A program made the position numbers and the translations under genes. Shown here piece by piece: positions 10,942-25,640 of a DNA stretch of 64,000 nucleotides. The notes below the pieces were generated by a model. The model searched no databases and was not told the DNA's origin. It was given only the letters and a program-made list of their open reading frames with translations. The DNA lies in assembly GCA_963977015.1 (NCBI GenBank), contig CAXBMO010000029.1, positions 1-64,000 on the forward strand. The letters run 5' to 3'. Every line of letters begins with the position of its first letter. Position 1 is the stretch's first letter. The stretch comes from an uncultured bacterium. Lineage in GTDB: Bacteria > Verrucomicrobiota > Verrucomicrobiia > Verrucomicrobiales > DEV007.

Positions 10942-11814
10942 TTACCAGGTTCGATTCGATTGCAGGAATTCCTTCACCTTTGATGGCTTGTTTGTGTGAA
11001 ACATTCGAACGCCCGCATCGACGAGCTTGGCCCAGTCATCGTGGGTTCCTTCAGCGTGCGTCTCAACCAGCATCCCCAGGCTCGTCGCGTATCGAATGAG
11101 TTCCAGGGTCTTGGGATCCGCCGGGTTCGATTTGGTCACATGGACTTGAACTGTGGTCGGGTTGAACCTTGCCACGATGTCGTCGATCTGCTTTTTGGAA
11201 TGGGTCTTGAACATCAACAATTCCCCCAAACCGGGGGCTCCGTTGGCCTGGTATTGAGCAAACAAGTCAGCCTCTTGATAGGGCACGCGAAAGAGGATTC
11301 CCTTCCTCGCGTTGTGCTTGGCAACGAGTTGCATCAGCTCCTCAAAGTGCGCACTGACGCCGGGTTTCAGGTCTGCCTTGAAGATCGTGCGGTTTTTTCC
11401 TTCCGTGAGGAACTCCTCAAGCGTCGCGACACGCTCTTCGGACACCGTCCCATCGCGATATTTCTTGCGATATTGCTTCAGCTCGGCCCACTCCATTTCA
11501 GCCACCTTCCCTGTCCCGGTGGTTTCGCGATCGATGGTGGAATCGTGCACCATCACAAACTGCCCATCCTTGGTGCGTTGAATATCCGTTTCGTAGAGCT
11601 GATAGCCTTTGGCCTGACAATTCTGGATGTTGGCGACGGAGTTCTCGGGGGCCCGGTCCGCCAAATCCGTTTCATAGCCACCTCGATGAGCGGCGATGTA
11701 GACCTCAGTCGAGTGGAGATTCAGAACCGTTGTCCGCCTGATCTCGGCCGCAGAACCGCGGGAAACGCAAACGACCAGAGCCAGCAGCAAAATTGAGGAT
11801 CGTCGCAACGTCAT
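10942..11814 (-). CDS. Glycerophosphodiester phosphodiesterase family protein
   Basis: AAHRG..APENS, ETDI, HDSTIDR and HTNKP motifs. Signal peptide from the ATG at 11814. Confidence 0.85.
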   Translation of the reverse strand: MTLRRSSILLLALVVCVSRGSAAEIRRTTVLNLHSTEVYIAAHRGGYETDLADRAPENSVANIQNCQAKGYQLYETDIQRTKDGQFVMVHDSTIDRETTGTGKVAEMEWAELKQYRKKYRDGTVSEERVATLEEFLTEGKNRTIFKADLKPGVSAHFEELMQLVAKHNARKGILFRVPYQEADLFAQYQANGAPGLGELLMFKTHSKKQIDDIVARFNPTTVQVHVTKSNPADPKTLELIRYATSLGMLVETHAEGTHDDWAKLVDAGVRMFHTNKPSKVKEFLQSNRTW

Positions 11815-12018
11815 GGGCAAATAGACAGCAAGAGGGTGGGGGGCACGCGATTCGGCAGTCTTTCCACCGCCCGGAACGGAACTTCCTTGCAAGAATAGCG
11901 GTCGGTTGCGCTTTTTGTGCACCAGGCGATCGCGATCATTCGCCAAAAGGTTTTGCGACGCCGTCCTGCTTCACGGCCCAACGGAATCTCCTGCCGAGCG
12001 TCGTTGAGCGCCAGAGCC

Positions 12019-13725
12019 TCACGGCGCCTGACGGGACTCAGCCTTACCGATCCTGCGGTTCACCGTTTCCAGCTTCGATTGCCGTTCGGCAAGCTTCGCG
12101 CGAAGCGCCCCGACCTCATCAGTGGCGGTTTTCAGCTGCACAAGCGCTTCCTGCGACTCCTCCGGGAGCACGATTTCCTCCCCTTGCAGGGCGAGTAGAC
12201 GCTTGTACTCCTGGCGGCGCAGGTTCTCGATCGTTTCAGCCACCTCGAGCCGGGTGCGCAAGCTGGCGACAGCAGCCCCGAGCCTCTGCGATTCGGCCTG
12301 CCATTGACGGACCATCTCCCGGCTGTGGGCGAGGGCAAGTTTCGCCTGACGAACGTAGTCAGCCGGATCGTCCGTGCGATAGGCGGAACCGGGAATCTCC
12401 CAGCCGTCAGCAAAGGCACGAACGATCCGGGACAGGTGCTGTCGATTCTGCCGGCCTTCGACCGCATCGGTAAGCAGCCGAGTCAACAGCGCCCTCGATT
12501 CGCGCGTCTTGTATTCCGCCATGGCGTTGAGCAGCAGCAGGGGCATCGAAACGTGATGGCGAAGAAGCAGTCTCTCGAATTTCGGCATGGCCTCCTCCGG
12601 CTTCCTATCCGTGAGGGCACATCCCGCCGCCGTGGCGATCTCGATGTTTGCGTCTTCCATCTGTTTGAGCAGAGCCGGGACCGCTTCAGCCCCGGCCCAG
12701 CGAAGCGACAGCAGCAGGATGAGCCGTCGCTCAAGATCCGTCTCCTCATCCAGCAACTCCAACATCTGATCCGTTCGGAAGGAGTGCCCGGCCCGAAACA
12801 GGGCCAGAATGCAGGCCATGCGAACGGCCGCGTTCTGCCCCTGATCATCAGCAATGTTCTCAATGACGGCCTGGTCGCCATTCTTCACGAACTCAGCCAG
12901 GATCACGATCGTCTCGTAGGGAAACCGCTTGGGCGCTCCGGCGGGTTCCGCATCTGCCCGGTAGCCACTCGGCGCGAGAATCAACGGGATCATCGATGGA
13001 TGGAGCGGCGACTCGATTGGGGCCGACGAAGAACCGTCTCTCACCTTGTAGTAAACGTTGTGGTAGGCGCCATAAGCGGTGTCGGAAGCACCTCCCGAAC
13101 CGGTGAAATCGCCGTGGTAGCGCACCTCCTTCAACAGGTTGGCAACCAACACCTGCCGCTGTCCTGCGGTCATCTTGGCGGGCTCAACGCTCATTTGATC
13201 CTTTTCCTTACGCCACCAATCATTGTAGAGCGCGAGCACGCGAACCCGCATCCTCGCCTCCAGGTCCGGCCCCGCCTCATACAAGGGCGGCAACTCGTGC
13301 CCGCAAATCATGAGGATCGTTTTCCGGTATTCAGGGATCATCACGTGACAAGAGCTTCGCTTCGCATGAAGCACGATGTAACGGAGCAGGAGCGGAATCG
13401 CCGCCAGGTCAGGATCGGCTTTCAGAATCCGGGTCGCCGCCGAGTAATTCGTCCAGTGCGAACTGTCATTGGTCGCGATGAGAAGATCCTCCGCATCCAA
13501 CAACTTGTCCACGTTGTCGGACTGCTGCAACAAGTCCACAAAGTCGCGTTCCAGCAGATGAAGCAGTTCATCTTCAACCGGCGTTCGCAGCACCTGTCGC
13601 TTCTCCAGTCGCGACGCCGTATCGACAAGTGGCTCTTCAGCCTTGAGAACCGCACCAGAGCAAAAAAGCAGGGCCCCCGTCCAAACCCAACGGAAACCAA
13701 TCAGGGCCAAAGAGCACATTCTCAT
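12019..13725 (-). CDS. HEAT-repeat-like secreted hypothetical protein
   Basis: Long helical ORF with AVPALL..MEDANIEIATAA repeats and a coiled-coil tail. Start uncertain. Confidence 0.6.
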   Translation of the reverse strand: MRMCSLALIGFRWVWTGALLFCSGAVLKAEEPLVDTASRLEKRQVLRTPVEDELLHLLERDFVDLLQQSDNVDKLLDAEDLLIATNDSSHWTNYSAATRILKADPDLAAIPLLLRYIVLHAKRSSCHVMIPEYRKTILMICGHELPPLYEAGPDLEARMRVRVLALYNDWWRKEKDQMSVEPAKMTAGQRQVLVANLLKEVRYHGDFTGSGGASDTAYGAYHNVYYKVRDGSSSAPIESPLHPSMIPLILAPSGYRADAEPAGAPKRFPYETIVILAEFVKNGDQAVIENIADDQGQNAAVRMACILALFRAGHSFRTDQMLELLDEETDLERRLILLLSLRWAGAEAVPALLKQMEDANIEIATAAGCALTDRKPEEAMPKFERLLLRHHVSMPLLLLNAMAEYKTRESRALLTRLLTDAVEGRQNRQHLSRIVRAFADGWEIPGSAYRTDDPADYVRQAKLALAHSREMVRQWQAESQRLGAAVASLRTRLEVAETIENLRRQEYKRLLALQGEEIVLPEESQEALVQLKTATDEVGALRAKLAERQSKLETVNRRIGKAESRQAP

Positions 13726-14076
13726 TGCTCCATCATACCAGAGTCTGCGAAGGCCCGTGTAAAAGTATTGTAAAACCAATGCCTTAAATGCTTTGGAAAA
13801 GGCTGCCACAGTTTCGCCTTTGAAGGGGCTTAGCCCGCGGTTTCGGCCTTCGCTGCCGCCTTTATTCCTGCGTTTTGGTGTGAGCATCGTTGAAAGCTTT
13901 TGCTGCCAAGGGTGCCAATCGTTCGTCGGTGAAATTCGTGCGTTTGTCTCTCCCGTTTCGTTTACAGCTCCGTCTCCTGTTTCCGTTGGTCAGATATTGT
14001 GAAAGTTAGTGTTGAGTGCGCCGGGACGATTTGCTGACCAGGGACTCCTCTTTTCTCCCGACGCAGCAGACTCCCG

Positions 14077-14313
14077 ATGATCACCGACTACCACGCCAAA
14101 AACTGCGCTCACGAATTCAATTGAGTGGGCGGCGAAGGTCTCGACCGTTTGGGGCGCGCTTTGTTTGATGCCTGTGTTGATCGGAATCCTAACCAGATCG
14201 TGGCTATCTTTGCCCTTCGGTCACCTTTATCCACGGGCGCTTTGTTGGCCAATGAAGCCAGATTGGGAAAATCCATCCAAGCCGGACTGGTGCATTGCCA
14301 GAATTGGGCCGAG
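14077..14313 (+). pseudogene. Degenerate 5' fragment of a SNF2 helicase
   Basis: MITDYHAK...(TGA at 14122)...VDRNPNQ...ALRSPLSTGALLANEARLGKSIQAG...WAE aligns by eye with the N-terminus of the protein at 20806-23673 (VDLNPHQ...GALLADEVGLGKTIEAG...WAE). Confidence 0.8.
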
Positions 14314-14385
14314 AGTGGCTTGGGCGACGATGGTTGCATAGACAAGATGTTTTCAAAGCTCACAAATTGAAAGAAAAAAAGACAG

Positions 14386-16287
14386 ATGAAGGCCGACGCA
14401 GTATCTCTACTCGCCGTATTTGAGTCGAAGGTCCGACTCGAGGTGCCGCTGTTCCAGCGGCAGTATGTCTGGAGCCTTGACCAGCAATGGGAACCCCTCT
14501 GGGAGGACATCTCCCGCAAGTTTGAGGAATACATTGAGGGGCGCCAAGATGCACCCGTCCACTTCCTCGGGGCGATGGTTCTCGATCAGAAGCAGACACC
14601 AACAGGAAAGGTGCCCAAGCGGCAGATCATCGACGGCCAGCAAAGATTGACAACACTACAGATCTTTCTTTCCGCTTTCCGCGACTTTTGTCGAGCGAAT
14701 GATTGCGAAGAACTTGGCAAAGAAGCCGAGACTTACACGCTTAACACGGGGATGATGGATGATCCGGCCGTCGACAAATTCAAGGTTTGGCCGACGAAGC
14801 TAGACCAGAATCAATTCCGCGATGTTGTTGAGAGTGGTTCACTTGAGAAACTTGAGAAAAAGCACCCGCTCACGAGGAGAAAGTACGCTCGAAAGTACGA
14901 TCCGCGACCGCGTATGATCGAAGCTTACGTCTTTTTCTATGGAGAACTAAAAGCATTCTTCATCGGTAATGCCCAGGACCCTCCGCTCAAGGCGGAAGAG
15001 CCATTGGTAGCCAGGCTGGAGGAGTGCTTCCAAGCGCTCAAAAATGCCCTTAAGATCGTTGCGATCGATCTGGAGAAAGATGACGACGCCCAGGTGATTT
15101 TCGAGACCCTGAACGCCCGCGGAGAGCCGCTTCTTCCGGCCGATCTACTCCGCAATTATATCTTCCTTCGCGCCGCCCGCCTCAACGAGAATCAGGAGGA
15201 ACTTTACGAAACCTATTGGTCTAGTTTTGACGAAGAATTCTGGCGCACGGAAGTGAAACAGGGCCGTCTTAATCGTCCCCGTAGCGATCTCTACATGCAG
15301 CATTTCCTTGCTAGTCGGCAGGGCGTGGACATTCCGATCAAACATCTATTCGTCGAATACAAATTTTGGATAGAAAAAAAGAAGCCATTTGAAAGGGTTA
15401 GAGATGAGTTAATGGCCTTGGCGCGCCAAGGAGGCCATTTTCGCCGAATTATCTCCCCTGGAAAGGATGACGTAGTTTTCAATCTGGCAACGTTTCTTGA
15501 GCGATTCGACATTCGAACCAGTTATCCTCTTTTACTTCTTCTCCTTGACCAAGGTCTAGACGAGGATGCATGGGCTGAGATTTCTAGAATCTTGGAATCC
15601 TACTTCTTGCGTCGCGCGGTCTGCGGATGGTCGACGAAGAATTACAACAAGATATTTCTCAGCTTGACTCGGAAGATGAAGAAAGACGGAGCGTCACCAC
15701 AAACCCTGAGAAAGGCCCTGTCCGATCAAGTTGGAGAATCTGGCGCCTGGCCAACCGATGAGCAGTTCGAGACCGAATGGAAGACTGCTCACGCCTACCA
15801 GCGTCTCAACAATCCCAAAATGGTTTATCTTCTTCGTCGATTGAGCAACAGCTACCTAGATACCAAGCATGAGAAGCTTTCCATCGATCAGAGTGTGACG
15901 GTGGAACACATTCTTCCGAAAAGCTGGATCGAACATTGGCCCCTTCAATCTGGTGCCAAAGGTCTGGAGGGTGCCAAATTGTGGGCGGAAGATGCAGATC
16001 CCGTAATCGTCGCGGCGACGAGGAAGAGAGACTCGGCGTTGCAGACGTTTGGCAACCTCACGATCCTCACCCAAGCCTTGAATTCAAGCGTAAGAAATTC
16101 CGCTTGGAGCATTAAGCAGCCGGAAATCATGAAATCTTCTCTCCTCCCGATAAATCAAATGCTTCACCGTTATAAAACCTGGAACGAAGACACTATTGAT
16201 GCCCGTGCAAAAGAACTCATTCAACGGGCGACGAACATTTGGCCTGGGCCTGATGAGAACAGCTTGTTGGCGAATCTTTTGAAGTGA
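14386..16287 (+). CDS. DUF262 + DUF1524 protein (GmrSD-like type IV restriction family)
   Basis: VPLFQRQYVW, IIDGQQRLTT, IFETLNARG, TVEHILP and GNLTIL..LNS motifs. Confidence 0.9.
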   Translation: MKADAVSLLAVFESKVRLEVPLFQRQYVWSLDQQWEPLWEDISRKFEEYIEGRQDAPVHFLGAMVLDQKQTPTGKVPKRQIIDGQQRLTTLQIFLSAFRDFCRANDCEELGKEAETYTLNTGMMDDPAVDKFKVWPTKLDQNQFRDVVESGSLEKLEKKHPLTRRKYARKYDPRPRMIEAYVFFYGELKAFFIGNAQDPPLKAEEPLVARLEECFQALKNALKIVAIDLEKDDDAQVIFETLNARGEPLLPADLLRNYIFLRAARLNENQEELYETYWSSFDEEFWRTEVKQGRLNRPRSDLYMQHFLASRQGVDIPIKHLFVEYKFWIEKKKPFERVRDELMALARQGGHFRRIISPGKDDVVFNLATFLERFDIRTSYPLLLLLLDQGLDEDAWAEISRILESYFLRRAVCGWSTKNYNKIFLSLTRKMKKDGASPQTLRKALSDQVGESGAWPTDEQFETEWKTAHAYQRLNNPKMVYLLRRLSNSYLDTKHEKLSIDQSVTVEHILPKSWIEHWPLQSGAKGLEGAKLWAEDADPVIVAATRKRDSALQTFGNLTILTQALNSSVRNSAWSIKQPEIMKSSLLPINQMLHRYKTWNEDTIDARAKELIQRATNIWPGPDENSLLANLLK

Positions 16288-16302
16288 ATCACTTCAGGTG
16301 CG

Positions 16303-17673
16303 CTACTTCTCTGGAAGATGCTCACTTTCGAATACCGAGTCAATCCTCCAATCTACAAGTTCTTCCAAACTTGTGGCTAGATAGTCCTGTCTTGGTAGCG
16401 AAAGTGGATCAGCACCGTAGGATATTGCCTGTGTAACAGCATCTCTCTGTGATACACTGAGAGATTCTAACCAGGTAGGTGAGATTGCCATGTTTTCACA
16501 ACTAGTCAAAATCAAATTGATCAGCAGTCCTTCCAGATTCTTATAAGAGCGATTTGTTGCCCATGCTAGTGTGCCCAACATTGCGTGGCAATACTCGTCG
16601 CTCATCTTGTGCCAGGAAAAGACTATTCCCCAGCCATCTGCCATTTGTGCAAAGGAAAATGTAATAAAGTCCAAATTTCCGATGATGCTCAGATCTTGTA
16701 GAATTTCTCCCCCAAATCCGAATTGGGGAAATAATGATCCCGAGAACACTATAGACGGTTCACTTTTTGATGCAAAGATTACATAACGGGCATCTTCAAA
16801 TCGTTCCGATTGGTGTGAATCGTCAAAGAACTTCTTTTGTCTTAGGAGCTGAGTCAATGCTCTTCGCGTTCCCTCTCTAGCGCCCTCGATCATCTCACGA
16901 GTAGCCGTTGTTCCATCAAAAACTCCCAGTTGATATTCGTAATTCTGAAAGGCACATTTTTTGGCATAGACTTCCCTGCAAAGAGATCTGTAAGCATATA
17001 AAAAGGCCTGTTTCGAAGTCGGCACGAGCGGTCTATCGTCGATAGGGCGAAAAATCTCGTTGTCGTGAGTTTTGCAAAACCCTCTAAAAGTTGAGACCGA
17101 CTTTATGTTTTGTCGTCTGAGAATGATGAGTCCCTGGTTCTTTTTTATATCCCCGTAACTTGATGAGGGTGTATATACCTCGCCATTCTCCGCGATGCTT
17201 GTTAGTGCACCACTTTTTTGAATCGAGTGAGCTTCAATCACCTCACCACAGTATTCTTCTTGAACGTAGTGGAGACATTGCCCTGCTTTTCGAATTTCTC
17301 TTTGTTTGTCGAGAATTTCCGAAAGCTCAACCTCCGGCGGATTAGGAATTGAAACTGGTTCATCAGAGTGTAACGCCTGATTGGATGTCCAACCCACCAT
17401 GAGCAATGAAATACCCTGTTTTTGGGCGTCGCGATAGCCATTCTCACCAAATTCACTGTCCCGAAAATTCTCAAAAGTGACAGGGGTTGGAGGGCTCTCC
17501 ATTTGCTCTATTCTCCAACCACTTCGACCAATGGCATACTTAGACTTCACTTTGGCGTCAGCAGCCGATTCAGTCTTTACAAAGCAATGAGCGATTGCGC
17601 CTTCAATCTCACTGAGGTGCTTTGCGCTGTCTTCAGGGACAACTGAGAAGGTCACAAAAAAAGTCTCGCTCAA
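16303..17673 (-). CDS. Low-GC hypothetical protein, possible HNH-like nuclease
   Basis: 456-aa ORF with C..C, AHSIQ and STFRGFCKTHDNEIF motifs. TTG start uncertain. Confidence 0.6.
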   Translation of the reverse strand: MSETFFVTFSVVPEDSAKHLSEIEGAIAHCFVKTESAADAKVKSKYAIGRSGWRIEQMESPPTPVTFENFRDSEFGENGYRDAQKQGISLLMVGWTSNQALHSDEPVSIPNPPEVELSEILDKQREIRKAGQCLHYVQEEYCGEVIEAHSIQKSGALTSIAENGEVYTPSSSYGDIKKNQGLIILRRQNIKSVSTFRGFCKTHDNEIFRPIDDRPLVPTSKQAFLYAYRSLCREVYAKKCAFQNYEYQLGVFDGTTATREMIEGAREGTRRALTQLLRQKKFFDDSHQSERFEDARYVIFASKSEPSIVFSGSLFPQFGFGGEILQDLSIIGNLDFITFSFAQMADGWGIVFSWHKMSDEYCHAMLGTLAWATNRSYKNLEGLLINLILTSCENMAISPTWLESLSVSQRDAVTQAISYGADPLSLPRQDYLATSLEELVDWRIDSVFESEHLPEK

Positions 17674-18033
17674 GGTTGTTCTGTCGGTTTTATTAAAGCT
17701 TGCTGTATCGTCGAGTTTTCTTGATTGTCAAGGATTTGCCTTGGTGTTCAGAGTTTCGTCTTGCAATATTCCCACACTGCTTGCGGCAAGCTTGATGATT
17801 AGCGTTTGCCTCGACTGATTCCAAAGTACTCTGCTCCTTACCATCCCGCCAGGGGCGCTGGCGAGCCTACCTGAGTTCTCTCTGTCGCAACGCGTTGTCC
17901 TACCGTCATGGGCTACCAAGATGATGAAGCGACATATTCTCAGCGATTGTGTCGTGAGGGATTAGACGATATTCCCAAGGTTTGCCGCCGTGTTTGGCAG
18001 TGTGGGCAGAAGCGTTCCGACACCACTCTTCAG

Positions 18034-18273
18034 CTACTGGTCGTAGAAAACACCATCGATGCCATTGTCCTCATAATCGTCAATGACGGCTTGCGCTGCA
18101 GTTTCTGTAGCGATCCCTGTGAGTTTTGAGAGGGTGAATGCTGTAAGTGCCCGGGCTGTATTCTTGGCGCCTTGGTGATCCGCTGGTGCGTTGGTGTCGA
18201 TCAAGGCTGGAAGATGAGGGACGTATTCCTCATCTAGCTTCGATCTGAGTAGCGCTAATTGTTCGGGAGTCAT
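18034..18273 (-). pseudogene. Truncated AIPR-like protein (N-terminal part)
   Basis: ARALTAF...AAQAVIDDYEDNGIDGVFYD resembles the AIPR N-terminal D..DNGID motif. It stops after 79 aa. Confidence 0.55.
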
Positions 18274-18281
18274 CGCAGAAA

Positions 18282-20630
18282 CTATTCAGGCTTGAGTAGC
18301 GGATAGAGGCGGCGGGTTACGGTTGCGCCGCGGTTGTGCCAACTGCAGCCGTCCTTCTTGCGATCAGGCAGGGCGTCCCGCTCATCGCAGAGGGCATCGA
18401 CCAAGGCGAGGGTAGCGTTCCCGAGTGCCAGGGATTCGGTGATCTCATCAAAGTGGCCAGCCAACTCTTTGAAGTGGCAACCGATGGCATTACGGACTTG
18501 AAGCCGAGAAAAGATGTCCTCGAGAAGCGGGGCTAAATCAGTAGACTTAGTTACCTGACCCTGCTCGTCAAGGTGTTCGCAGCGGAGAGCGGGAAGAAGT
18601 TTCTTCTCGCCTTTTAATCCTCCCCGATAGTGATCGAGAGTCCAGCGTTGCTCGGCACCGGGGGATCGGGGGAGGCGACATTGGTAGATGCCAGTGAGAA
18701 AATCGAGGATGCGCTCGAGGACGATGCCGGACTTGTTTGCGATTGTGCCGGGATCTTCAGCCGCTTCCACATGACGGCGGAGGAAGGCGATCTCTGAGTC
18801 CGGGCCTTTGGCGAGACTGAGGCCTCCTTCAAGTGACCAGGTTCCCAGCTCAAGGAACTCTACCTTCTTCTGGGTCAGGATACCCCAGCGAAACTTGAAG
18901 CGCAGCGGTTGGTAGTGACTGCTAATGATGACGTGGTGGAAGTGGGCTGCCTCATCGAGAAGCAGCTCGTAGAGGCGCTCCATGTGCGCTTCATCCACTG
19001 AGGCGATGGCATCGTCGAGGAAAAGGATGGTGTTCTCCGGAGTCTCCCTCTTCTCCAGTGCCAGAAAGAGGCAAAGCCCGAGCGTGTCCAGATGTGATTC
19101 GGACAATAGGGCCACTGGGCTAGCCTCGGCCTTGCCGAAAAGGGTGCCATCAAACTGTGCCGACGACTTCTTGGTTGGGTGCAGGTAGAGCTTGATGGTT
19201 TCGATCTTTTCACCCGGGTGAATCGATTGGTAGAGCGTGGCAAAGTCCCCTGAGATGGCTTTCAGGGTTTCATTCGCGTGACGGATACGTTCATTGTGGA
19301 GGACGGTCTTAATGGCCTCGCCCCGCTTGACGATGAATTCAATGCGCTTGCCATCAGCGGTGGCGTGCTTGATCCGCTTGATGGCTTGGCGAATCTCTGA
19401 CTGCAGGGTCTTTCGGATTTGGAGGGCGGCATGTTCTTTCTCAACCGTTTCCGACAGGGGCTTTAGCTGAGAGGCTTCGGCCTTCAGGCGAGTGAACCAA
19501 TCTTCAGTCAGGTCGTCGGCGCTCTCAACCGCCAGAATGGAGGGAACGAGGTCCGGAAGACTCCATTGTTCCGAGTCGATAGCCAATTGGTGCACCTCCT
19601 TGAGCCGGGTAACGATGGCGAAGAAGGAATCCTGAAGGGTCTTCTGGGATGTCTGAGCCCTTTGGAGCGTATCCTTGGCATTCTTGGTCTTTTCGCTCTG
19701 CTCCTTGACGGCTTTCAGGGTTCCAAGCTTTTCATCGATTTTCTGAACGAGTTCTTCGTGGCCGATCTCTGTATCACAGACCGGACAGGTATCGGAGTCG
19801 CTCAGCTTCAAATAGGCTTGTGACTGCTGAAGCGCTTCGAAGGCTTTGGCAAGGTCGTCACTGTGATCGGCCACAAGCTTGGTGAGAGACGCTTTCTCTG
19901 TCTCGAAAGTTTCTTGGGCCTTGGTGACGGCTGGATAGCTGTCTGCGAGCGGTCTAAAATCATCACGCAGCCGCTTGATCTCTTGGTTGAGATCTTGGAG
20001 GATTTGAAAGTTTTCCGCGATGGTCTCTTCGCTCTCGCTAAGAATATCTCGTTGCCAATCCTTTTGGCGCTCGCCGTATTTTGTTCGGTCAGCGTGTTCC
20101 GCGAACAAATTCGCTAGTATATCATGGGCCTGAGCGATTAAGCTCGTCTGGCTGTTCAGATTCCCCTTCTCCGAGAGAATGAGTTCATTCAAGGCGGCTT
20201 CCTCGCGGTCGAGAGCCGGGATGGAGACGAAGTCTTGAATCCTCTTGAAGCGATTTGCGGGAGTTTCCTCGATGAGTTTGGTGATGTTTTTGCGACTCAG
20301 AACTTTGAGCTGATGGTCGAGGTAGCCCGTGTGCTGGACCTTGGCACCAGAGAGCCGCGCCGAACGGGTCTTATTCTTCACGTTCAACGAGACAGACAAA
20401 TCCGCCTTTTTTCGGGAGGCGTTGACGAGCTGACCAAGACGCGATTTTCCATCTAGAGATTTTTCTTCCAACGATCCCGCCGTGCCATCAACAACGAACT
20501 CGAAAGCATCGGAGATTGTCGTCTTACCACTGCCATTTTCACCATAGAGAACCGTGAGATTTTGCTTTGTGTCAAACTTAACCGTGAAGGGCTCGTTCAC
20601 CCCTCGAAAGGCTTCAAGATTCAGTTCCAT
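18282..20630 (-). CDS. Rad50/SMC-like ABC ATPase with zinc hook and C-terminal HEPN-like domain (RloC-like)
   Basis: FRG, Walker A GENGSGKT, coiled coil, CPVC, signature LSESH, Walker B FLDD..SVD, H-loop SSH, then LE...RNAIGCH. GGAGG RBS upstream. Confidence 0.8.
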   Translation of the reverse strand: MELNLEAFRGVNEPFTVKFDTKQNLTVLYGENGSGKTTISDAFEFVVDGTAGSLEEKSLDGKSRLGQLVNASRKKADLSVSLNVKNKTRSARLSGAKVQHTGYLDHQLKVLSRKNITKLIEETPANRFKRIQDFVSIPALDREEAALNELILSEKGNLNSQTSLIAQAHDILANLFAEHADRTKYGERQKDWQRDILSESEETIAENFQILQDLNQEIKRLRDDFRPLADSYPAVTKAQETFETEKASLTKLVADHSDDLAKAFEALQQSQAYLKLSDSDTCPVCDTEIGHEELVQKIDEKLGTLKAVKEQSEKTKNAKDTLQRAQTSQKTLQDSFFAIVTRLKEVHQLAIDSEQWSLPDLVPSILAVESADDLTEDWFTRLKAEASQLKPLSETVEKEHAALQIRKTLQSEIRQAIKRIKHATADGKRIEFIVKRGEAIKTVLHNERIRHANETLKAISGDFATLYQSIHPGEKIETIKLYLHPTKKSSAQFDGTLFGKAEASPVALLSESHLDTLGLCLFLALEKRETPENTILFLDDAIASVDEAHMERLYELLLDEAAHFHHVIISSHYQPLRFKFRWGILTQKKVEFLELGTWSLEGGLSLAKGPDSEIAFLRRHVEAAEDPGTIANKSGIVLERILDFLTGIYQCRLPRSPGAEQRWTLDHYRGGLKGEKKLLPALRCEHLDEQGQVTKSTDLAPLLEDIFSRLQVRNAIGCHFKELAGHFDEITESLALGNATLALVDALCDERDALPDRKKDGCSWHNRGATVTRRLYPLLKPE

Positions 20631-20799
20631 CGGTACCTCCTTGCTCAGATTCGAATTGCTTGGTGAGGACGAGGTTCCAGTTCACGTCTTTCGATTCTCC
20701 GAGTGCTTTCACCACTTCTGCAATCGTAGCTTTATCAACCAGAGATTGGGAGGCGAGCGCTTCGGATACCCGTTTGGCGGTCTCAGCGGGGAGTGTCAT
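20614..20799 (-). CDS. Small 61-aa hypothetical protein coupled to the ATPase
   Basis: Starts 6 nt after the SNF2 stop and overlaps the ATPase start by 17 nt. Confidence 0.65.
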   Translation of the reverse strand: MTLPAETAKRVSEALASQSLVDKATIAEVVKALGESKDVNWNLVLTKQFESEQGGTDGTES

Positions 20800-20805
20800 G
20801 AGTTT

Positions 20806-23673
20806 CTATTTCAGGATCCACTTAATGGTGAAGAGTTCCTCCTCTGAGGACTCGGCTTTGAGTTTGCCCTCGATGCTTTCGATGAGGCGTTCGCGGTTGT
20901 TGTCGATCTCGTCCTGAGCGTCGAAAAGCGAGCGGCGACGTTCCTTGCGGTGGCTTTCGAGAGCTTTAATTTGTTTCTGGCCTGCGAGCTTTTCTTCGAG
21001 GCTGAGGGCGGCTGAGGCGGCGCGACGAGCTTCCTTGATCTGGCGGTCGATGTCCTTGATTTCGCGCTCAAGGCCGACCTTCAGGTCGTCGGCCCAGTTG
21101 TCGAGTTTGGTGGCTTCGGCTTCGAAGAACTCAGCATTGCGCTCGGAGATGTCGCGGCTGATGCGGGCCTGTTCTTTTTGAGCGAGCTCGTCGAGGGAAG
21201 TCGGCAGGGCGTGGGTCACGGAGCCGTTGGATTGCCCTGGTAGTGAGAGGAGGCGGCGGGCGGTTTCTTCGTCGAGGACTTGCCCTGTGTCGGTGTGGGC
21301 GGCAAGAATGAGGTAATCTTCGGTCTGATCGAGAGACTGGACGGTGAATTGGCTCGCGATGAGCCAACCGGATTGGCCGAGGTAGGGCTCGAGGATGGTG
21401 ACTTTTCCCTCGTGGTCGTCGTAGCTGAAGCGGATCTCCTCGGGTTGGAGCTCCCGCACTTTGGCTTGGGTGATGAGGGCATCTGCAAGCGGGTGGCCGA
21501 TGCGGTAGAGGTGTGCCTCGCCTGAGCGGCGAGGAAGCTCGTAGCGGCCGAGGGGGACCTTGGAGGCGAGTTTAGGTTGATCGGGAAAGGGATCGGAGAT
21601 GAGCTCAAAGCTACCTTCGCCATTGAAGGTGGCATGACCATTGAGTTCGTGGCGGGAGAGGCGGATGAGCTGGCGTTCGAACCGACCGAGTATGGCCTTT
21701 GAATCTTCGTCGCGTATTTTGAGTTTCTCGCGGACTTCGTCGTCGAAGTGCTCGAGGAGCTTCTTCCGCGTGGTGGTCATGGCCTCGTTAATTTCAAAGC
21801 TTAGTTCCAGTTGGAGGTCGTCGAAGGCTTCTTTGATCTCTTTGGGCTTGCGGCAGTGGTTATAGATCGAGGCGATGCGTTTCTCGAAATCGACGCCGGA
21901 GCCGATAGCACCGAGGACTTCGTCGCTGGCACCGAAGACGCCTTCGAAGAGGTTGAATTTTTCGGCGAGAAGTTCGTAGACACGTTGGTCGGCTGCGTTC
22001 TTTTTGTTGAGGAAGTTGACGACGACCACGTCGTGTTTTTGGCCGTAACGGTGACAGCGGCCGATGCGCTGTTCGACGCGCTGGGGGTTCCAGGGGAGGT
22101 CGTAGTTGATGACGAGGGAGCAGAACTGGAGGTTGATTCCCTCGGCTCCGGCCTCGGTGGCGATCATGATCCGGCCTTGCTCGCGGAAGTAGTCGACGAT
22201 GGCGGAGCGCATGTCGGCAGTGCGGGAGCCGGTGACGCGGTCGCTGCCTTCGTGGCGCTCGATCCAGTCGGCGTAAATTTCCTTGGAACGCTCGTCGGTG
22301 TTACTGCCGTTGAAGAGGACGATGCCTTCGCTCCATTCGCTCTCGGAGAGGAGCTGGAGGAGGTAGTTCTGCGTGCGGCGGGACTCGGTGAAGATGATGG
22401 CCTTTTCGGCTGCTCCGAGTGAGGTGGCACGGTCGAAGGCGACGCGGAGGGCCCGAAGGAGGGCGTCGCCCTTGGCATTGTTGGTGATGGAAGTCGCGAG
22501 CTGGGCGAAGGACTGGAGCTCGGCGATCTCGGACTCGAGAGCGGCGCGGTCCTCTGGTGTGAGGCGCTCGGGTGGTGGGTCCTCTGTCCATTCGTCAGCG
22601 GTTTCGTCGAGAGCTTCGTAGTCGTCGTCGAGTTCGTCCTGCAGCGGGAGATTGTCCTGCTCGGCGAGGTCGCGCTGGAGGCGACGGGCCATCGTTTCCA
22701 AAGCCCCTGCGATGGCGAAGGTGGAGGACGCGAGGAGTTTCCTCAGGACGAGCGTCATGAGGGTGCGCTGGGCTGGAGGGAGCGCGAAGAGGTCTGGCCG
22801 GGTGAGGTATTCGGAGACGAGTTGGTAGAGCTGGTCTTCGGTTTCCTGCGGAGTGAATTCTTGGATGATGGCGTGCCGGGCGGTATAGGGCACGTATTGC
22901 ACAACCTGACGGCGCAGGGTGCGGTGACAGAGGGGGGCAAGGCGATCCTTGAGAGTTTGGAATGTGGTGTCCTGACTGAGGTTGGCGAATTGCTGTCGGA
23001 AGCTCTTGAGGTCTCCGAAGGCGTGTTCGTCGATGAAGGAGATGAGGCCGAAAAGTTCGAGGAGGGAGTTTTGCAGCGGGGTAGCGGTGAGAAGCACCTT
23101 GGGTCGGCCTTCGAGGGCGCGCTTCAGCTCGTTGGCGATGACGTTGCTGGTCTTGTAGACGTTGCGGAGGCGGTGGGCTTCGTCGATGACGACGAGGTCC
23201 CAGGGGGTGGCGACAATGTCTTCGGCCTTGTTGCGGGCGAAGTGGTAGGAGCAGATGACGAGGTTGGGCTCGTCAGGTTGGAAGGGGTTGGTGGAGCCTT
23301 CCTTCTTGGCCTTGTTGTAGGACTTGGCCTCAAGGATCAGCGACGGGAGGAAAAATTTTTCGGCGAGCTCCTGGTGCCACTGCTTCCGGAGGTTCGAGGG
23401 GGCGATGATGAGAATCCGGCGTTTCCGCTCGGCCCAGCGTTGGGAGAGGAGGATGCCGGCTTCGATGGTTTTTCCAAGGCCGACTTCGTCGGCGAGGAGG
23501 GCGCCATTGGAAAAAGGAGACTTGAAGGCGAAGAGAGCGGCATCGACCTGGTGGGGGTTGAGGTCGACCTGGGCACCGGCCACCGCAGCAGCGAGACTGC
23601 CGACGCTATCGGAGGACCAGCGGCGGGTGAGCCCGTAGGCTAGGTATTTGGCTTGGTGGTCGGTGAGATACAT
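20806..23673 (-). CDS. SNF2-family helicase (RM/defence-associated type)
   Basis: LLADEVGLGKT, DEAH, TATP, TEAGAEGINLQ and QRIGRCHRYGQ motifs, with a coiled-coil C-terminus. Confidence 0.92.
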   Translation of the reverse strand: MYLTDHQAKYLAYGLTRRWSSDSVGSLAAAVAGAQVDLNPHQVDAALFAFKSPFSNGALLADEVGLGKTIEAGILLSQRWAERKRRILIIAPSNLRKQWHQELAEKFFLPSLILEAKSYNKAKKEGSTNPFQPDEPNLVICSYHFARNKAEDIVATPWDLVVIDEAHRLRNVYKTSNVIANELKRALEGRPKVLLTATPLQNSLLELFGLISFIDEHAFGDLKSFRQQFANLSQDTTFQTLKDRLAPLCHRTLRRQVVQYVPYTARHAIIQEFTPQETEDQLYQLVSEYLTRPDLFALPPAQRTLMTLVLRKLLASSTFAIAGALETMARRLQRDLAEQDNLPLQDELDDDYEALDETADEWTEDPPPERLTPEDRAALESEIAELQSFAQLATSITNNAKGDALLRALRVAFDRATSLGAAEKAIIFTESRRTQNYLLQLLSESEWSEGIVLFNGSNTDERSKEIYADWIERHEGSDRVTGSRTADMRSAIVDYFREQGRIMIATEAGAEGINLQFCSLVINYDLPWNPQRVEQRIGRCHRYGQKHDVVVVNFLNKKNAADQRVYELLAEKFNLFEGVFGASDEVLGAIGSGVDFEKRIASIYNHCRKPKEIKEAFDDLQLELSFEINEAMTTTRKKLLEHFDDEVREKLKIRDEDSKAILGRFERQLIRLSRHELNGHATFNGEGSFELISDPFPDQPKLASKVPLGRYELPRRSGEAHLYRIGHPLADALITQAKVRELQPEEIRFSYDDHEGKVTILEPYLGQSGWLIASQFTVQSLDQTEDYLILAAHTDTGQVLDEETARRLLSLPGQSNGSVTHALPTSLDELAQKEQARISRDISERNAEFFEAEATKLDNWADDLKVGLEREIKDIDRQIKEARRAASAALSLEEKLAGQKQIKALESHRKERRRSLFDAQDEIDNNRERLIESIEGKLKAESSEEELFTIKWILK

Positions 23674-24136
23674 TCCAGTTGAATCCGTTTGATTATCTAT
23701 TCCGCCTTCATTCCCTCACGGTCAAAGTCGTAGCAAAGTCGCTTCGCGAAAAACAGCCGATGAATGTGTTCCGTGAAATTCGGGGGCTGCCCTAGAACAC
23801 GTAATCAAGCAGGCTGCATCACAAAACCAGGATTCTAGAAATTTGTCCTGGGATACTGCCTTCTCCCCTTTCGATTTCGGAGAATATTTCCTAACAACCA
23901 TAACAAGTGGGTTGATCTTAGCTCGGATTTACTACTTTGCTAGAGCGATTCTTCCAAGCGATGACGTCAACATTTCGGACGATCGGAAGGAGGGGCACGT
24001 ATTCCCCAAGGCAACCAATGAAGACGAGTTCGAAATGCAGAAATCTATTTCAGAACCGCAAATGCACCGCAGCCAATTCAGCCTAAAACAAAAAAGCGAC
24101 TCTCGATTTCTCGGAAGTCGCTGATTGGAAAGAAGA

Positions 24137-24218
24137 TGGGCAGGAGAGGATTCGAACCTCTGAAGGCATAGCCAGCAGATTTACAGTCTGCCCCGTTTGA
24201 CCGCTTCGGTACCTACCC
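24137..24218 (-). tRNA. tRNA-Tyr(GTA)
   Basis: GGGTAGG...GCAGACTGTAAATCTGC...GGTTCGAATCC...CCTGCCCA with a long variable arm. CCA is not encoded. Confidence 0.95.
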
Positions 24219-24359
24219 AGGGCTGGGTGTCGTTCCTGAAAACTCAGAGACGACTGGGAGGCGCACTAAATGGCGGTTCGCGGAGTTTGCAACCAATTTT
24301 GGTTGAATTTGATGGTCGGGAAGGCACTTTCTCCGTCCCCTGTGCCCGGGGATCCAAGG

Positions 24360-25640
24360 ATGGCCAGCAAGCTCCAGAAATTGAAGGGATTCCGTGATTT
24401 TTATCCGGAGTCGTGTGCGGTTCGCAACTATTTGTTCGAGACGTGGCGGCGCGTGGTCGCGAAGTATCGCTTTTCGGAATACGAGGGGCCGATCCTGGAG
24501 CCGACCGATTTGTATCGGAAGAAGAGTGGCGATGAGATCACGGAGCAGCTCTATCACTTTCTCGACAAGGGAGAGCGTGAGGTGGCGATGCGGCCGGAAT
24601 TGACTCCGACCCTGGCGCGGATGGCGGCGGCGAAGCAACGGGAGTATCGCAAGCCGATGAAGTGGTTCAGCATCGGGCCGTTTTTCCGCTACGAGAAGCA
24701 GCAGAAAGGGAGGCTCCGCGAGTTCTACCAGTTCAACTGCGATATTCTGGGCGAAGATTCCCCGGCGTTGGATGCGGAGCTGATCGCGGTGTCGATCGAT
24801 TTGATGCGGGAACTCGGGTTTGGCGAAGGCGATTACGTGATTCGGGTGAGCGATCGCAGTGCGTGGATGCGCTGGATTGAGGAGCAGGGCATTGGCGATG
24901 CGGCGACCTTTCTGCAATCGATCGATAAGATGGAGCGAACCCCGCCCGAGAAGACGGATGAGGGGTTGCAGGCGCTGGGGACGAGTCTTGCCGCGGTGCA
25001 GGAGTTCATGAGCCGGGGAGAAGAGGTGAGCGAGCGGATGCCGTTGATTCGCGAGAATCTTGCGGCGCGCGGGCTCGACGGGTTTCTGCAATGGGATCTC
25101 GGGATTGTGCGTGGGCTGGCTTATTACACGAGCACGGTTTTCGAGGTGTTTGATCAGGGGAAAGGCATGCGAGCGGTGGCCGGAGGCGGGCGTTATGACG
25201 AATTGGTGGGGCTGATTGGCGGCGTTGAGATGCCGGCAGCCGGATTCGCGATGGGCGATGTGGTGATTGGCGATTTGATTCAGGAAACGCCAGCCGCGAA
25301 GGCGAAGTTGGATGCCTGGCTGGAGGAACATGCGGCGATTGAGGTGTTCGTGATCGTGGCAAACGAGGAGCAGCGCTCCGCGGCGTTGGCGGGTGTTCAG
25401 GTTCTGCGCGATGCGGGGAACCGGGTCGAGTTTGCGCATTCGGCGGCCAAGGTCGGCAAGCAATTTCAAGCCGCGGAACAGGCGAACGCGAAGTTGGCCG
25501 TGATCTACGGAGACGAATTCCCCACGTTGAAGGTGAAGAACATGGCGGATCGGTCGGAGGTGGAGGTTTCCAGCGATTCGCTCGTCGGCGAGATCTCGAA
25601 AATTCTGGGAGCTTCAGGATCAGTGGTTTCGGGCGATTGA
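24360..25640 (+). CDS. hisS: Histidine--tRNA ligase
   Basis: KGFRDF, MRPELT, GRLREFYQ, RGLAYYT and GGGRYD motifs. Confidence 0.95.
   Translation: MASKLQKLKGFRDFYPESCAVRNYLFETWRRVVAKYRFSEYEGPILEPTDLYRKKSGDEITEQLYHFLDKGEREVAMRPELTPTLARMAAAKQREYRKPMKWFSIGPFFRYEKQQKGRLREFYQFNCDILGEDSPALDAELIAVSIDLMRELGFGEGDYVIRVSDRSAWMRWIEEQGIGDAATFLQSIDKMERTPPEKTDEGLQALGTSLAAVQEFMSRGEEVSERMPLIRENLAARGLDGFLQWDLGIVRGLAYYTSTVFEVFDQGKGMRAVAGGGRYDELVGLIGGVEMPAAGFAMGDVVIGDLIQETPAAKAKLDAWLEEHAAIEVFVIVANEEQRSAALAGVQVLRDAGNRVEFAHSAAKVGKQFQAAEQANAKLAVIYGDEFPTLKVKNMADRSEVEVSSDSLVGEISKILGASGSVVSGD

Follow-up and report, generated by a model that had tools for sequence, protein, structure and literature searches.

The rlo genes (restriction-linked open reading frames, ORFs) are variable accessory genes found between the genes of type I restriction-modification (R-M) systems, and in Lamassu (LmuA-LmuB-LmuC), which triggers on DNA ends, an SMC/Rad50-like ATPase carrying a coiled coil works together with a nuclease effector and a small accessory protein. 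According to the parts of PMC3710099 and PMC12707154 that deal with them, ABC-HEPN proteins encoded within R-M operons form a second line of defence, PrrC (with EcoprrI) and RloC serving as a back-up to R-M. The principle of R-M-embedded ABC-HEPN suicide nucleases is already known, with PrrC and RloC as examples. The present analysis concerns a 64,000-nucleotide stretch of contig CAXBMO010000029.1 from an uncultured bacterium of the Verrucomicrobiota (the whole stretch is hereafter referred to as the window), in which genes for an SNF2 helicase, a 61-amino-acid protein, an ATPase fused to a HEPN-like domain and the N-terminal stub of an AIPR protein follow one another on the minus strand. This locus is probably the 5' portion left over from an operon with the order SNF2, variable cargo, Mod and Res, whose abortive-infection cargo in the style of PrrC/RloC was orphaned by the loss of the R-M genes; that it originated as a remnant appears very likely. 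The genes and gene fragments concerned are as follows.

20806-23673, minus strand: SNF2 helicase gene, 955 amino acids, intact frame (ORF calling)
20614-20799, minus strand: gene of the 61-amino-acid helical protein (ORF calling)
18282-20630, minus strand: ABC ATPase-HEPN gene, 782 amino acids, intact frame (ORF calling)
18034-18273, minus strand: N-terminal stub of AIPR, an ORF of 79 amino acids (tblastn to full-length AIPR)
17906-18043, minus strand, in a different frame from the AIPR stub: last ~44 codons of a type III Res gene, the Res tail (tblastn)

The first four are co-oriented and separated by 6 nucleotides (SNF2 and 61-amino-acid protein), a 17-nucleotide overlap (61-amino-acid protein and ATPase) and 8 nucleotides (ATPase and AIPR stub), an arrangement close to a tRNA gene that had been described from the letters of the DNA alone (hereafter the sequence-only reading) and is borne out by the ORF calls and by ARAGORN.

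The evidence for a lost R-M system begins at the downstream end of the locus. In tblastn comparisons the AIPR stub shows 43% identity over 81 amino acids to residues 12-92 of a 605-residue AIPR protein from a related locus (L018). Full-length AIPR homologues match Pfam AIPR (PF10592; domain at residues ~250-400) and PADLOC AbiU; the 79-residue stub ends ahead of this domain and has no Pfam match. Fifteen Res proteins match the window from 18043 to 17912 at 41-71% identity, through residues ~850-892 of ~896. The AIPR homology extends from 18282 to 18040 in one frame and the Res homology begins at 18043 in another, which places the junction at about 18034-18043, where the first ~78 codons of AIPR abut the last ~44 codons of Res. 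A search of the whole genome with the Res protein of a relative (L005) returned this fragment as the sole match, and the cognate Mod was not found in the 95%-complete genome or in the window with the L005 Mod as query. The sequence-only reading had stated that no methylase or Res gene is present, which holds for the methylase and is nearly but not quite right for Res, because the Res tail abuts the AIPR stub; this tail is the key clue to the history of the locus. On the simplest reading of the sequence, a single deletion, estimated from intact relatives at ~6 kb, would have joined AIPR codon ~78 to Res codon ~850. There is no intact ancestral locus for comparison, since among the 41 genomes searched (that of the window and 40 relatives) the true homologue is restricted to the genome of the window, none of the three others of the same genus having it.

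It is very improbable that the AIPR-Res junction is a mis-join in this metagenome-derived assembly, the organism itself carrying the full operon. The two sides of the junction have the same orientation and stand in the order expected of the operon, no repeat able to cause a mis-join turned up, none of the listed joints and loose ends is at the junction, and the L005 queries detected neither Mod nor more of Res on the other contigs of the genome. What speaks for a mis-join is that the public contigs covering parts of 16200-24300 are short, derive from four marine metagenome runs of one study and have low word depth (about 2-6), and that no listed piece spans the junction; these contigs neither confirm nor contradict it. 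There is no RNA run among the listed public runs containing the locus.

The gene neighbourhoods of relatives were examined from two anchors, the ATPase and the SNF2 protein. A word-index protein search with the ATPase gave 95 clusters (E <= 0.001), one of them that of the window itself. Nearly all are 777-791 amino acids long, and those with a name belong to the Verrucomicrobiota. A scan of species-representative genomes provided 44 ATPase-anchored loci. The upstream side can be assessed in 30, which come from several phyla, and in 22 of these the gene directly before the ATPase encodes a full-length SNF2 of the same family as the window's (tblastn), a recurrence beyond chance; two loci besides these 30 start within the ATPase. 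The most distant ATPases (22-35% identity) are those of the eight loci lacking SNF2. ORF clustering, Pfam and PADLOC identify the genes downstream of the ATPase in the relatives as those of a type III Mod (Pfam N6_N4_Mtase; MTase_III of PADLOC, 761 bits) and Res (Pfam ResIII; REase_III of PADLOC, 719 bits), often with AIPR, YhcG, RhuM, SEC-C or AAA_15 genes in between. Res and/or Mod are present in 16 of the 17 SNF2-linked loci having at least 4.9 kb downstream, the exception being L027, and the remaining five of the 22 end too early to be judged. Homologous ATPases are largely found, therefore, beside type III Mod/Res genes. The order SNF2, small protein, ATPase recurs, as the sequence-only reading had proposed to examine, and among the 17 loci with enough downstream sequence L027 alone lacks Mod and Res; together with the Res tail joined to the AIPR stub, the 16 of 17 loci uphold that reading's other suggestion, that these are the remains of an R-M locus.

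For the SNF2-anchored survey the family-specific C-terminal 300 residues (alignment A3) were used as the query, and relatives of this region were recognised in at least 515 of 599 candidate stretches of the species-representative genomes. The best 80 of these were kept and 78 loci (L049-L126) were analysed. Among the 48 with at least 6 kb downstream, all drawn from the relatives most similar to the query, Mod and/or Res lie on the same strand in 47 (both in 43), while the ATPase is present in six and AIPR in ten. The gap between SNF2 and Mod varies from 3 nucleotides to 7.8 kb and contains AAA_21/AAA_15 ATPases (10 loci), AIPR (nine), DUF5131 (seven), DUF2130 (six), OLD-like AAA_15 proteins and ATPase-HEPN proteins (five each), an AAA+ protein (four), S8 subtilases, GmrSD and RloB-like proteins (three each) and 54 singleton ORFs. 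Because Mod and Res are constant and the gap genes form a changing set, the SNF2 belongs with Mod/Res, whereas the ATPase is a cargo module like many others; in the window the SNF2 has probably been orphaned. Operons of the order SNF2, cargo, Mod and Res are widespread. Such loci resemble the rlo loci in having accessory defence genes amid R-M genes, with AAA_21/AAA_15 ATPases and RloB-like proteins in the cargo, and differ from them in the host operon, which is SNF2-Mod-Res here and hsdRMS there. They share with type III R-M systems (EcoP15I-like, Mod2Res) the adjacent Mod (N6_N4_Mtase) and Res (ResIII helicase) genes, to which they add a strongly conserved lead SNF2 gene and a variable cargo slot before Mod; the window itself differs further in lacking Mod and in having Res cut to ~44 codons.

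These surveys bear directly on the other possibility raised by the sequence-only reading, a stand-alone three-gene system in which an SNF2 translocase and the small protein would sense foreign DNA and control the ATPase-HEPN protein, Mod and Res being unneeded. With the SNF2 accompanied by Mod/Res in 47 of 48 loci and by the ATPase in just six, such a system is quite improbable and the claim is not supported. It could appeal to the three intact and tightly spaced ORFs, to the order of the genes in the 22 of 30 loci and to the SNF2-linked locus L027/L071, which has no Mod or Res within 10 kb. However, the C-terminal region of the SNF2 that served as the search query is retained in loci lacking the ATPase, the window holds a Res tail, and the small protein stays with the ATPase where the SNF2 is missing (L010, L014 and L127), which tells against a joint control by SNF2 and small protein. 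Across phyla, moreover, the SNF2 shows 65-70% identity and the ATPase about 30%; the far better preservation of the SNF2 fits an exchange of cargo, as expected if the ATPase is swapped in and out of a constant operon.

The identity of the SNF2 helicase, recognised in the sequence-only reading, is confirmed by matches over the cut-offs to Pfam SNF2-rel_dom (E 7.5e-37, 127.4 bits) and Helicase_C (75 bits), and the protein is 45-82% identical to the SNF2 proteins upstream of ATPase homologues (tblastn). Its best PADLOC and NCBIfam matches are DrmD models (PADLOC DrmD, 695 bits; NCBIfam DISARM_DrmD_b, NF038318, 703 bits), and its helicase core is nearest to DrmD, with a DNA methylase adjacent in the relatives as in DISARM. 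One could accordingly take the SNF2 for DrmD and the locus for a broken Class 1 DISARM system, but this is extremely improbable: the 703 bits fall under the equivalog cut-off of 950 and cover profile positions 24-644 of 868, the helicase core only, and the second model (NF038317) gives 253 bits against a cut-off of 610. The partners in the relatives are the type III Mod (761 bits) and Res (719 bits), not DrmA, DrmB or DrmC. The DrmB-type domain PF09369 was not found in the genome by a search that was positive in 8 of 14 control genomes; no separate search was made for DrmA and DrmC. A strongly conserved helical segment with the consensus ERNA.FFEAEA.KLD.WADDLK.GLEREIK..DRQIKEARR makes up the final ~110 residues of the SNF2, within the region of alignment A3 (20809-21708, minus strand), and is retained also in loci without the ATPase. 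It is probably a docking element for Mod/Res.

The cargo that appears to have survived in the window centres on the ATPase, whose principal features are listed below.

20520-20543, minus strand: Walker A motif GENGSGKT, residues 30-37 (G30, E31, N32, G35 and K36 invariant in 19 sequences)
19776-19787, minus strand: CPVC, residues 282-285, on the apical loop of the coiled coil (C282, P283 and C285 invariant in 19 sequences)
18381-18803, minus strand: HEPN-like domain, residues ~610-750 (motif and fold search)
18474-18494, minus strand: RNAIGCH, residues 713-719 (alignment of 19 sequences)

The 782-residue protein matches Pfam SMC_N and AAA_23, shows a weak match to Rad50_zn_hook under the cut-off (E 0.0068) and scores 77 and 66 bits with the LmuB models of PADLOC, for which PADLOC has no curated cut-off. 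With AAA_13 (PF13166, the PrrC/RloC model) it reaches 18.5 bits against a gathering cut-off of 36, yet 18 of 19 relatives match this model at E <= 0.01 (best 1.3e-11), so that it is a distant cousin of RloC and not a member by the rule of Pfam. A search of the PDB by sequence returned weak matches to SMC/ATPase heads only (best E 6e-4). In the AlphaFold (AF2) model (predicted local distance difference test, pLDDT, 81.5) an N-lobe (residues 1-135) is followed by long helices to residue 276, a loop at 277-290 that carries CPVC between helices 263-276 and 291-352, helices returning to residue 470, a C-lobe (480-600) and an extra helical domain (613-750). Foldseek searches with this model retrieved chains of SMC, Rad50, SbcC, RecN and Lamassu LmuB (9uxh, 9hqx) at E values down to 1.2e-10. 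The signature motif and Walker B are, like Walker A, invariant across the 19 relatives, which come from several phyla. Its motifs and predicted model place the protein in the SMC/Rad50 class of ATPases, with a CPxC loop at the apex of its coiled coil.

The C-terminal 198 residues modelled alone gave a pLDDT of 79. Foldseek found no match for this domain model at E <= 0.001, and an exhaustive VIA-align search placed the HEPN protein 2hsb first (Z 9.4, a value under the level deemed safe by VIA-align for helical bundles; root-mean-square deviation 2.9, 116 residues aligned), followed by 5yep, 7ae2, 1wwp, 1ufb, 8xdj, Csm6 chains, the sacsin HEPN domain and AbiA, with many HEPN chains in the top 25. 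In the RNxxGxH motif R713, N714 and G717 are invariant and H719 is present in at least 90% of the 19 ATPase relatives. As the Z-score lies below the safe level, the domain is named HEPN-like from fold and motif together. The zinc-hook and AIPR-stub assignments of the sequence-only reading were right, in that CPxC is conserved and the stub aligns to the AIPR N-terminus, and its HEPN assignment agrees with the conserved RNxxGxH. In the Brachythrix locus L010, which is without SNF2 and without R-M genes, a proline replaces the histidine of RNxxGxH (L010:11702-12301), and the HEPN domain there may, from this substitution, be inactive.

In comparison with RloC and PrrC as treated in the consulted parts of PMC3710099 and PMC12707154, the protein shares the Rad50-like ABC head with conserved Walker A, signature and Walker B motifs, a putative C-terminal HEPN-type domain with an Rx4-6H motif (RNxxGxH here) and, with RloC, a CxxC loop at the coiled-coil apex (CPxC here); its gene lies inside an R-M operon in the relatives, as that of PrrC does in EcoprrI. 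It differs in falling under the AAA_13 cut-off, in a host operon that is type III-like with an SNF2 helicase and not type Ic, and in an obligate small partner gene, no such partner being mentioned for PrrC or RloC in those parts. With Lamassu it has in common the SMC/Rad50-like ATPase with coiled coil, matched by LmuB models and structures, the predicted small accessory subunit and a putative nuclease effector. Here, however, the effector is HEPN-like and fused to the ATPase, whereas LmuA is separate; the partner has 61 residues, no LmuA or LmuC model of PADLOC matched any of the four proteins, and the cassette usually lies inside an R-M operon.

Neither the 61-residue protein nor the 79-residue stub has a family match in Pfam, PADLOC or NCBIfam. 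Of the 36 loci searched, 30, that of the window among them, nevertheless have a small ORF of about 58-86 amino acids ending at the start of the ATPase, and these ORFs form one family in alignment A4 with an invariant Trp (W41 in the window protein) within the motif (E/D)DW(R/K)L, or NWNL in the window's clade. The small ORF lies beside the ATPase also where both SNF2 and R-M genes are missing (L010, L014 and the Hymenobacter plasmid L127). Gene order and alignment together indicate that the small protein and the ATPase are a conserved two-gene cassette, present also without SNF2 or R-M. The last of these loci is on a mobilizable plasmid of Hymenobacter monticola (NZ_CP094536.1, 49022-69382), which has a full-length ATPase homologue (28.5% identity) preceded by an unannotated small ORF and carries no SNF2, Mod or Res; a tyrosine recombinase (integrase) gene and two hypothetical genes are the neighbours of the ATPase.

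Three prediction runs for the complex of the 61-residue protein with the ATPase gave ipSAE values of 0.68, 0.66 and 0.68, whereas none of three controls scored above 0.00; the partner had a pLDDT of at least 80 and the runs shared at least 97% of the contacts. When the tool was calibrated, 58 of 80 solved complexes passed the mark used for such predictions, as did 2 of 110 mismatched pairs; this calibration is only roughly valid here because self-made alignments were used. The small protein is predicted to touch the ATPase at residues 133-150 and 429-451, where the outgoing and the returning helix of the coiled coil adjoin the heads. Kleisin N-domains bind the necks of SMC proteins and the helix-loop-helix of Mre11 binds Rad50 at the same neck site. 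The predicted complex supports binding of the 61-residue protein, which would clamp the coiled-coil neck of the ATPase in a comparable manner.

Several points weigh against the reading of the locus as a whole as an orphaned R-M operon with PrrC/RloC-style cargo. The AIPR/Res junction is known from this assembly alone, none of the contig pieces listed bridging 18034-18043. The figure of 47 in 48 describes close relatives, the kept loci being the 80 most similar to the SNF2 query; five of the 78 SNF2 loci share contigs with the ATPase-anchored set, and the ORFs of the comparison loci were called by a simple longest-ORF rule. To these are added the AAA_13 score of the ATPase below the gathering cut-off, the Foldseek search of the C-terminal domain without a match at the threshold used, and the VIA-align Z-score under the safe level. 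For the small protein, the calibration of the complex score is approximate, as said above, and the pass may reflect a likeness to the kleisin-SMC or Mre11-Rad50 neck complexes, since such complexes are present in the PDB.

Granted a remnant, the genes left after the loss of Mod and Res may be functionless and merely not yet degraded. The deletion scar itself, a second SNF2 stub close by, the decay of whole loci in relatives (L031 in pieces, the ATPase of L026 interrupted) and the sporadic occurrence of the system (one of 41 genomes, none of the three others of the genus) are in keeping with an inert wreck, which is all the same unlikely: the frames of 955, 61 and 782 amino acids are open, all the conserved catalytic motifs are intact, and homologous pairs of small protein and ATPase occur on their own. 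As some other loci have this pair but neither SNF2 nor R-M genes, the copy in the window may still be active, the chances of its present activity being about even. Among the decaying copies, L031 has SNF2, ATPase and Res all in pieces, L001 has SNF2, AIPR and Mod split, and in L026 the interruption of the ATPase is about 1.1 kb; these breaks could be sequencing errors in metagenome-assembled genomes.

If the locus is the remnant of an SNF2-cargo-Mod-Res operon, its original cargo would have consisted of the 61-residue protein, the Rad50/SMC-like ATPase fused to a HEPN RNase and the AIPR gene, and one deletion of ~6 kb would have taken most of AIPR, all of Mod and nearly the whole of Res, sparing its final ~44 codons. 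In an undamaged operon SNF2-Mod-Res would restrict unmodified DNA, with the small protein and the ATPase-HEPN protein as the back-up. The ATPase would dimerise through its heads and its CPxC hook and might sense DNA ends or the failure of the neighbouring R-M system; once triggered, it would free the HEPN RNase to act on tRNA or other RNA, and the small protein, seated on the coiled-coil neck by the heads, would set the threshold of this switch. A wider generalisation is offered tentatively, at somewhat less than even odds: that SNF2-cargo-Mod-Res is a widespread class of R-M system in which the SNF2 is a core fourth part and the gap a hot spot for abortive-infection cargo, and that the two-gene cargo, a 'mini-kleisin' of 58-86 residues clamping the neck of a zinc-hook ATPase-HEPN protein, also works alone and is perhaps active here.

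Taken by itself, the window suggests a decayed locus rather than a new stand-alone system, and it illustrates that cargo may outlive its R-M host. To the known principle of embedded suicide nucleases the present analysis would add a type III-like class of R-M system with a highly conserved SNF2 at its head, which present catalogues of defence systems would split into 'RM type III' and an orphan 'DrmD', a variable cargo slot inside the SNF2-led operon, and a conserved partner of very small size that is predicted to attach to the coiled-coil neck of a Rad50-like ATPase-RNase fusion. If this is true, the small protein and the ATPase would provide a compact model for an SMC-like sensor gating a fused effector. 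A literature search found no paper naming the arrangement of SNF2, small protein, ABC-HEPN and type III genes; older catalogues may list the family (for example the HEPN list in Additional file 1 of PMC3710099). Two further reports were considered, PMC10853773 and 10.1101/2025.09.15.676423, and in the portions consulted were not relevant to the arrangement.

The surroundings of the locus include two further annotated features.

24135-24219, minus strand: tRNA-Tyr (GTA), at the edge of the island (ARAGORN)
14386-16287, plus strand: GmrSD type IV restriction enzyme gene, intact (Pfam GmrSD_N and GmrSD_C; PADLOC mREase_IV, 311 bits)

The tRNA-Tyr gene lies on the same strand as the operon, 461 nucleotides upstream of the SNF2 start, and housekeeping genes (hisS, BamB-like) start just past it. 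As the GC content falls to 0.45-0.52 from 14 to 18 kb of the window and housekeeping genes begin beyond the tRNA, the setting is a small variable island. An att-like direct repeat of the 3' end of the tRNA-Tyr gene was not found in 11500-24400, and no integrase was seen. A promoter and terminator scan of 17500-24300 was uninformative, because it found fewer sites than in shuffled sequence. At the far edge of the island, a 622-residue ORF (12019-13887, minus strand) is without match in Pfam, PADLOC and NCBIfam. Just downstream of the Res tail lies a 456-residue ORF (16303-17673, minus strand; GC about 0.45-0.47) with no match in the same three databases, and BLASTP detects no resemblance between it and the SEC-C cargo proteins from L006 and L014; its Atlas structure model resembles clusters of hypothetical and SEC-C-domain proteins (template-modelling scores 0.75-0.84).

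The second SNF2 fragment lies at 14077-14313 on the plus strand and represents the N-terminal ~80 codons of a divergent member of the same family as the 955-residue SNF2. By tblastn, 18 SNF2 proteins match it through their residues ~1-82 at 44-57% identity, and the 955-residue SNF2 does so at 44%. The GmrSD gene follows it directly, and GmrSD is found as cargo behind SNF2 in three related loci too. The second SNF2 stub and GmrSD may perhaps be another decayed SNF2-cargo-Mod-Res operon, facing the first one.

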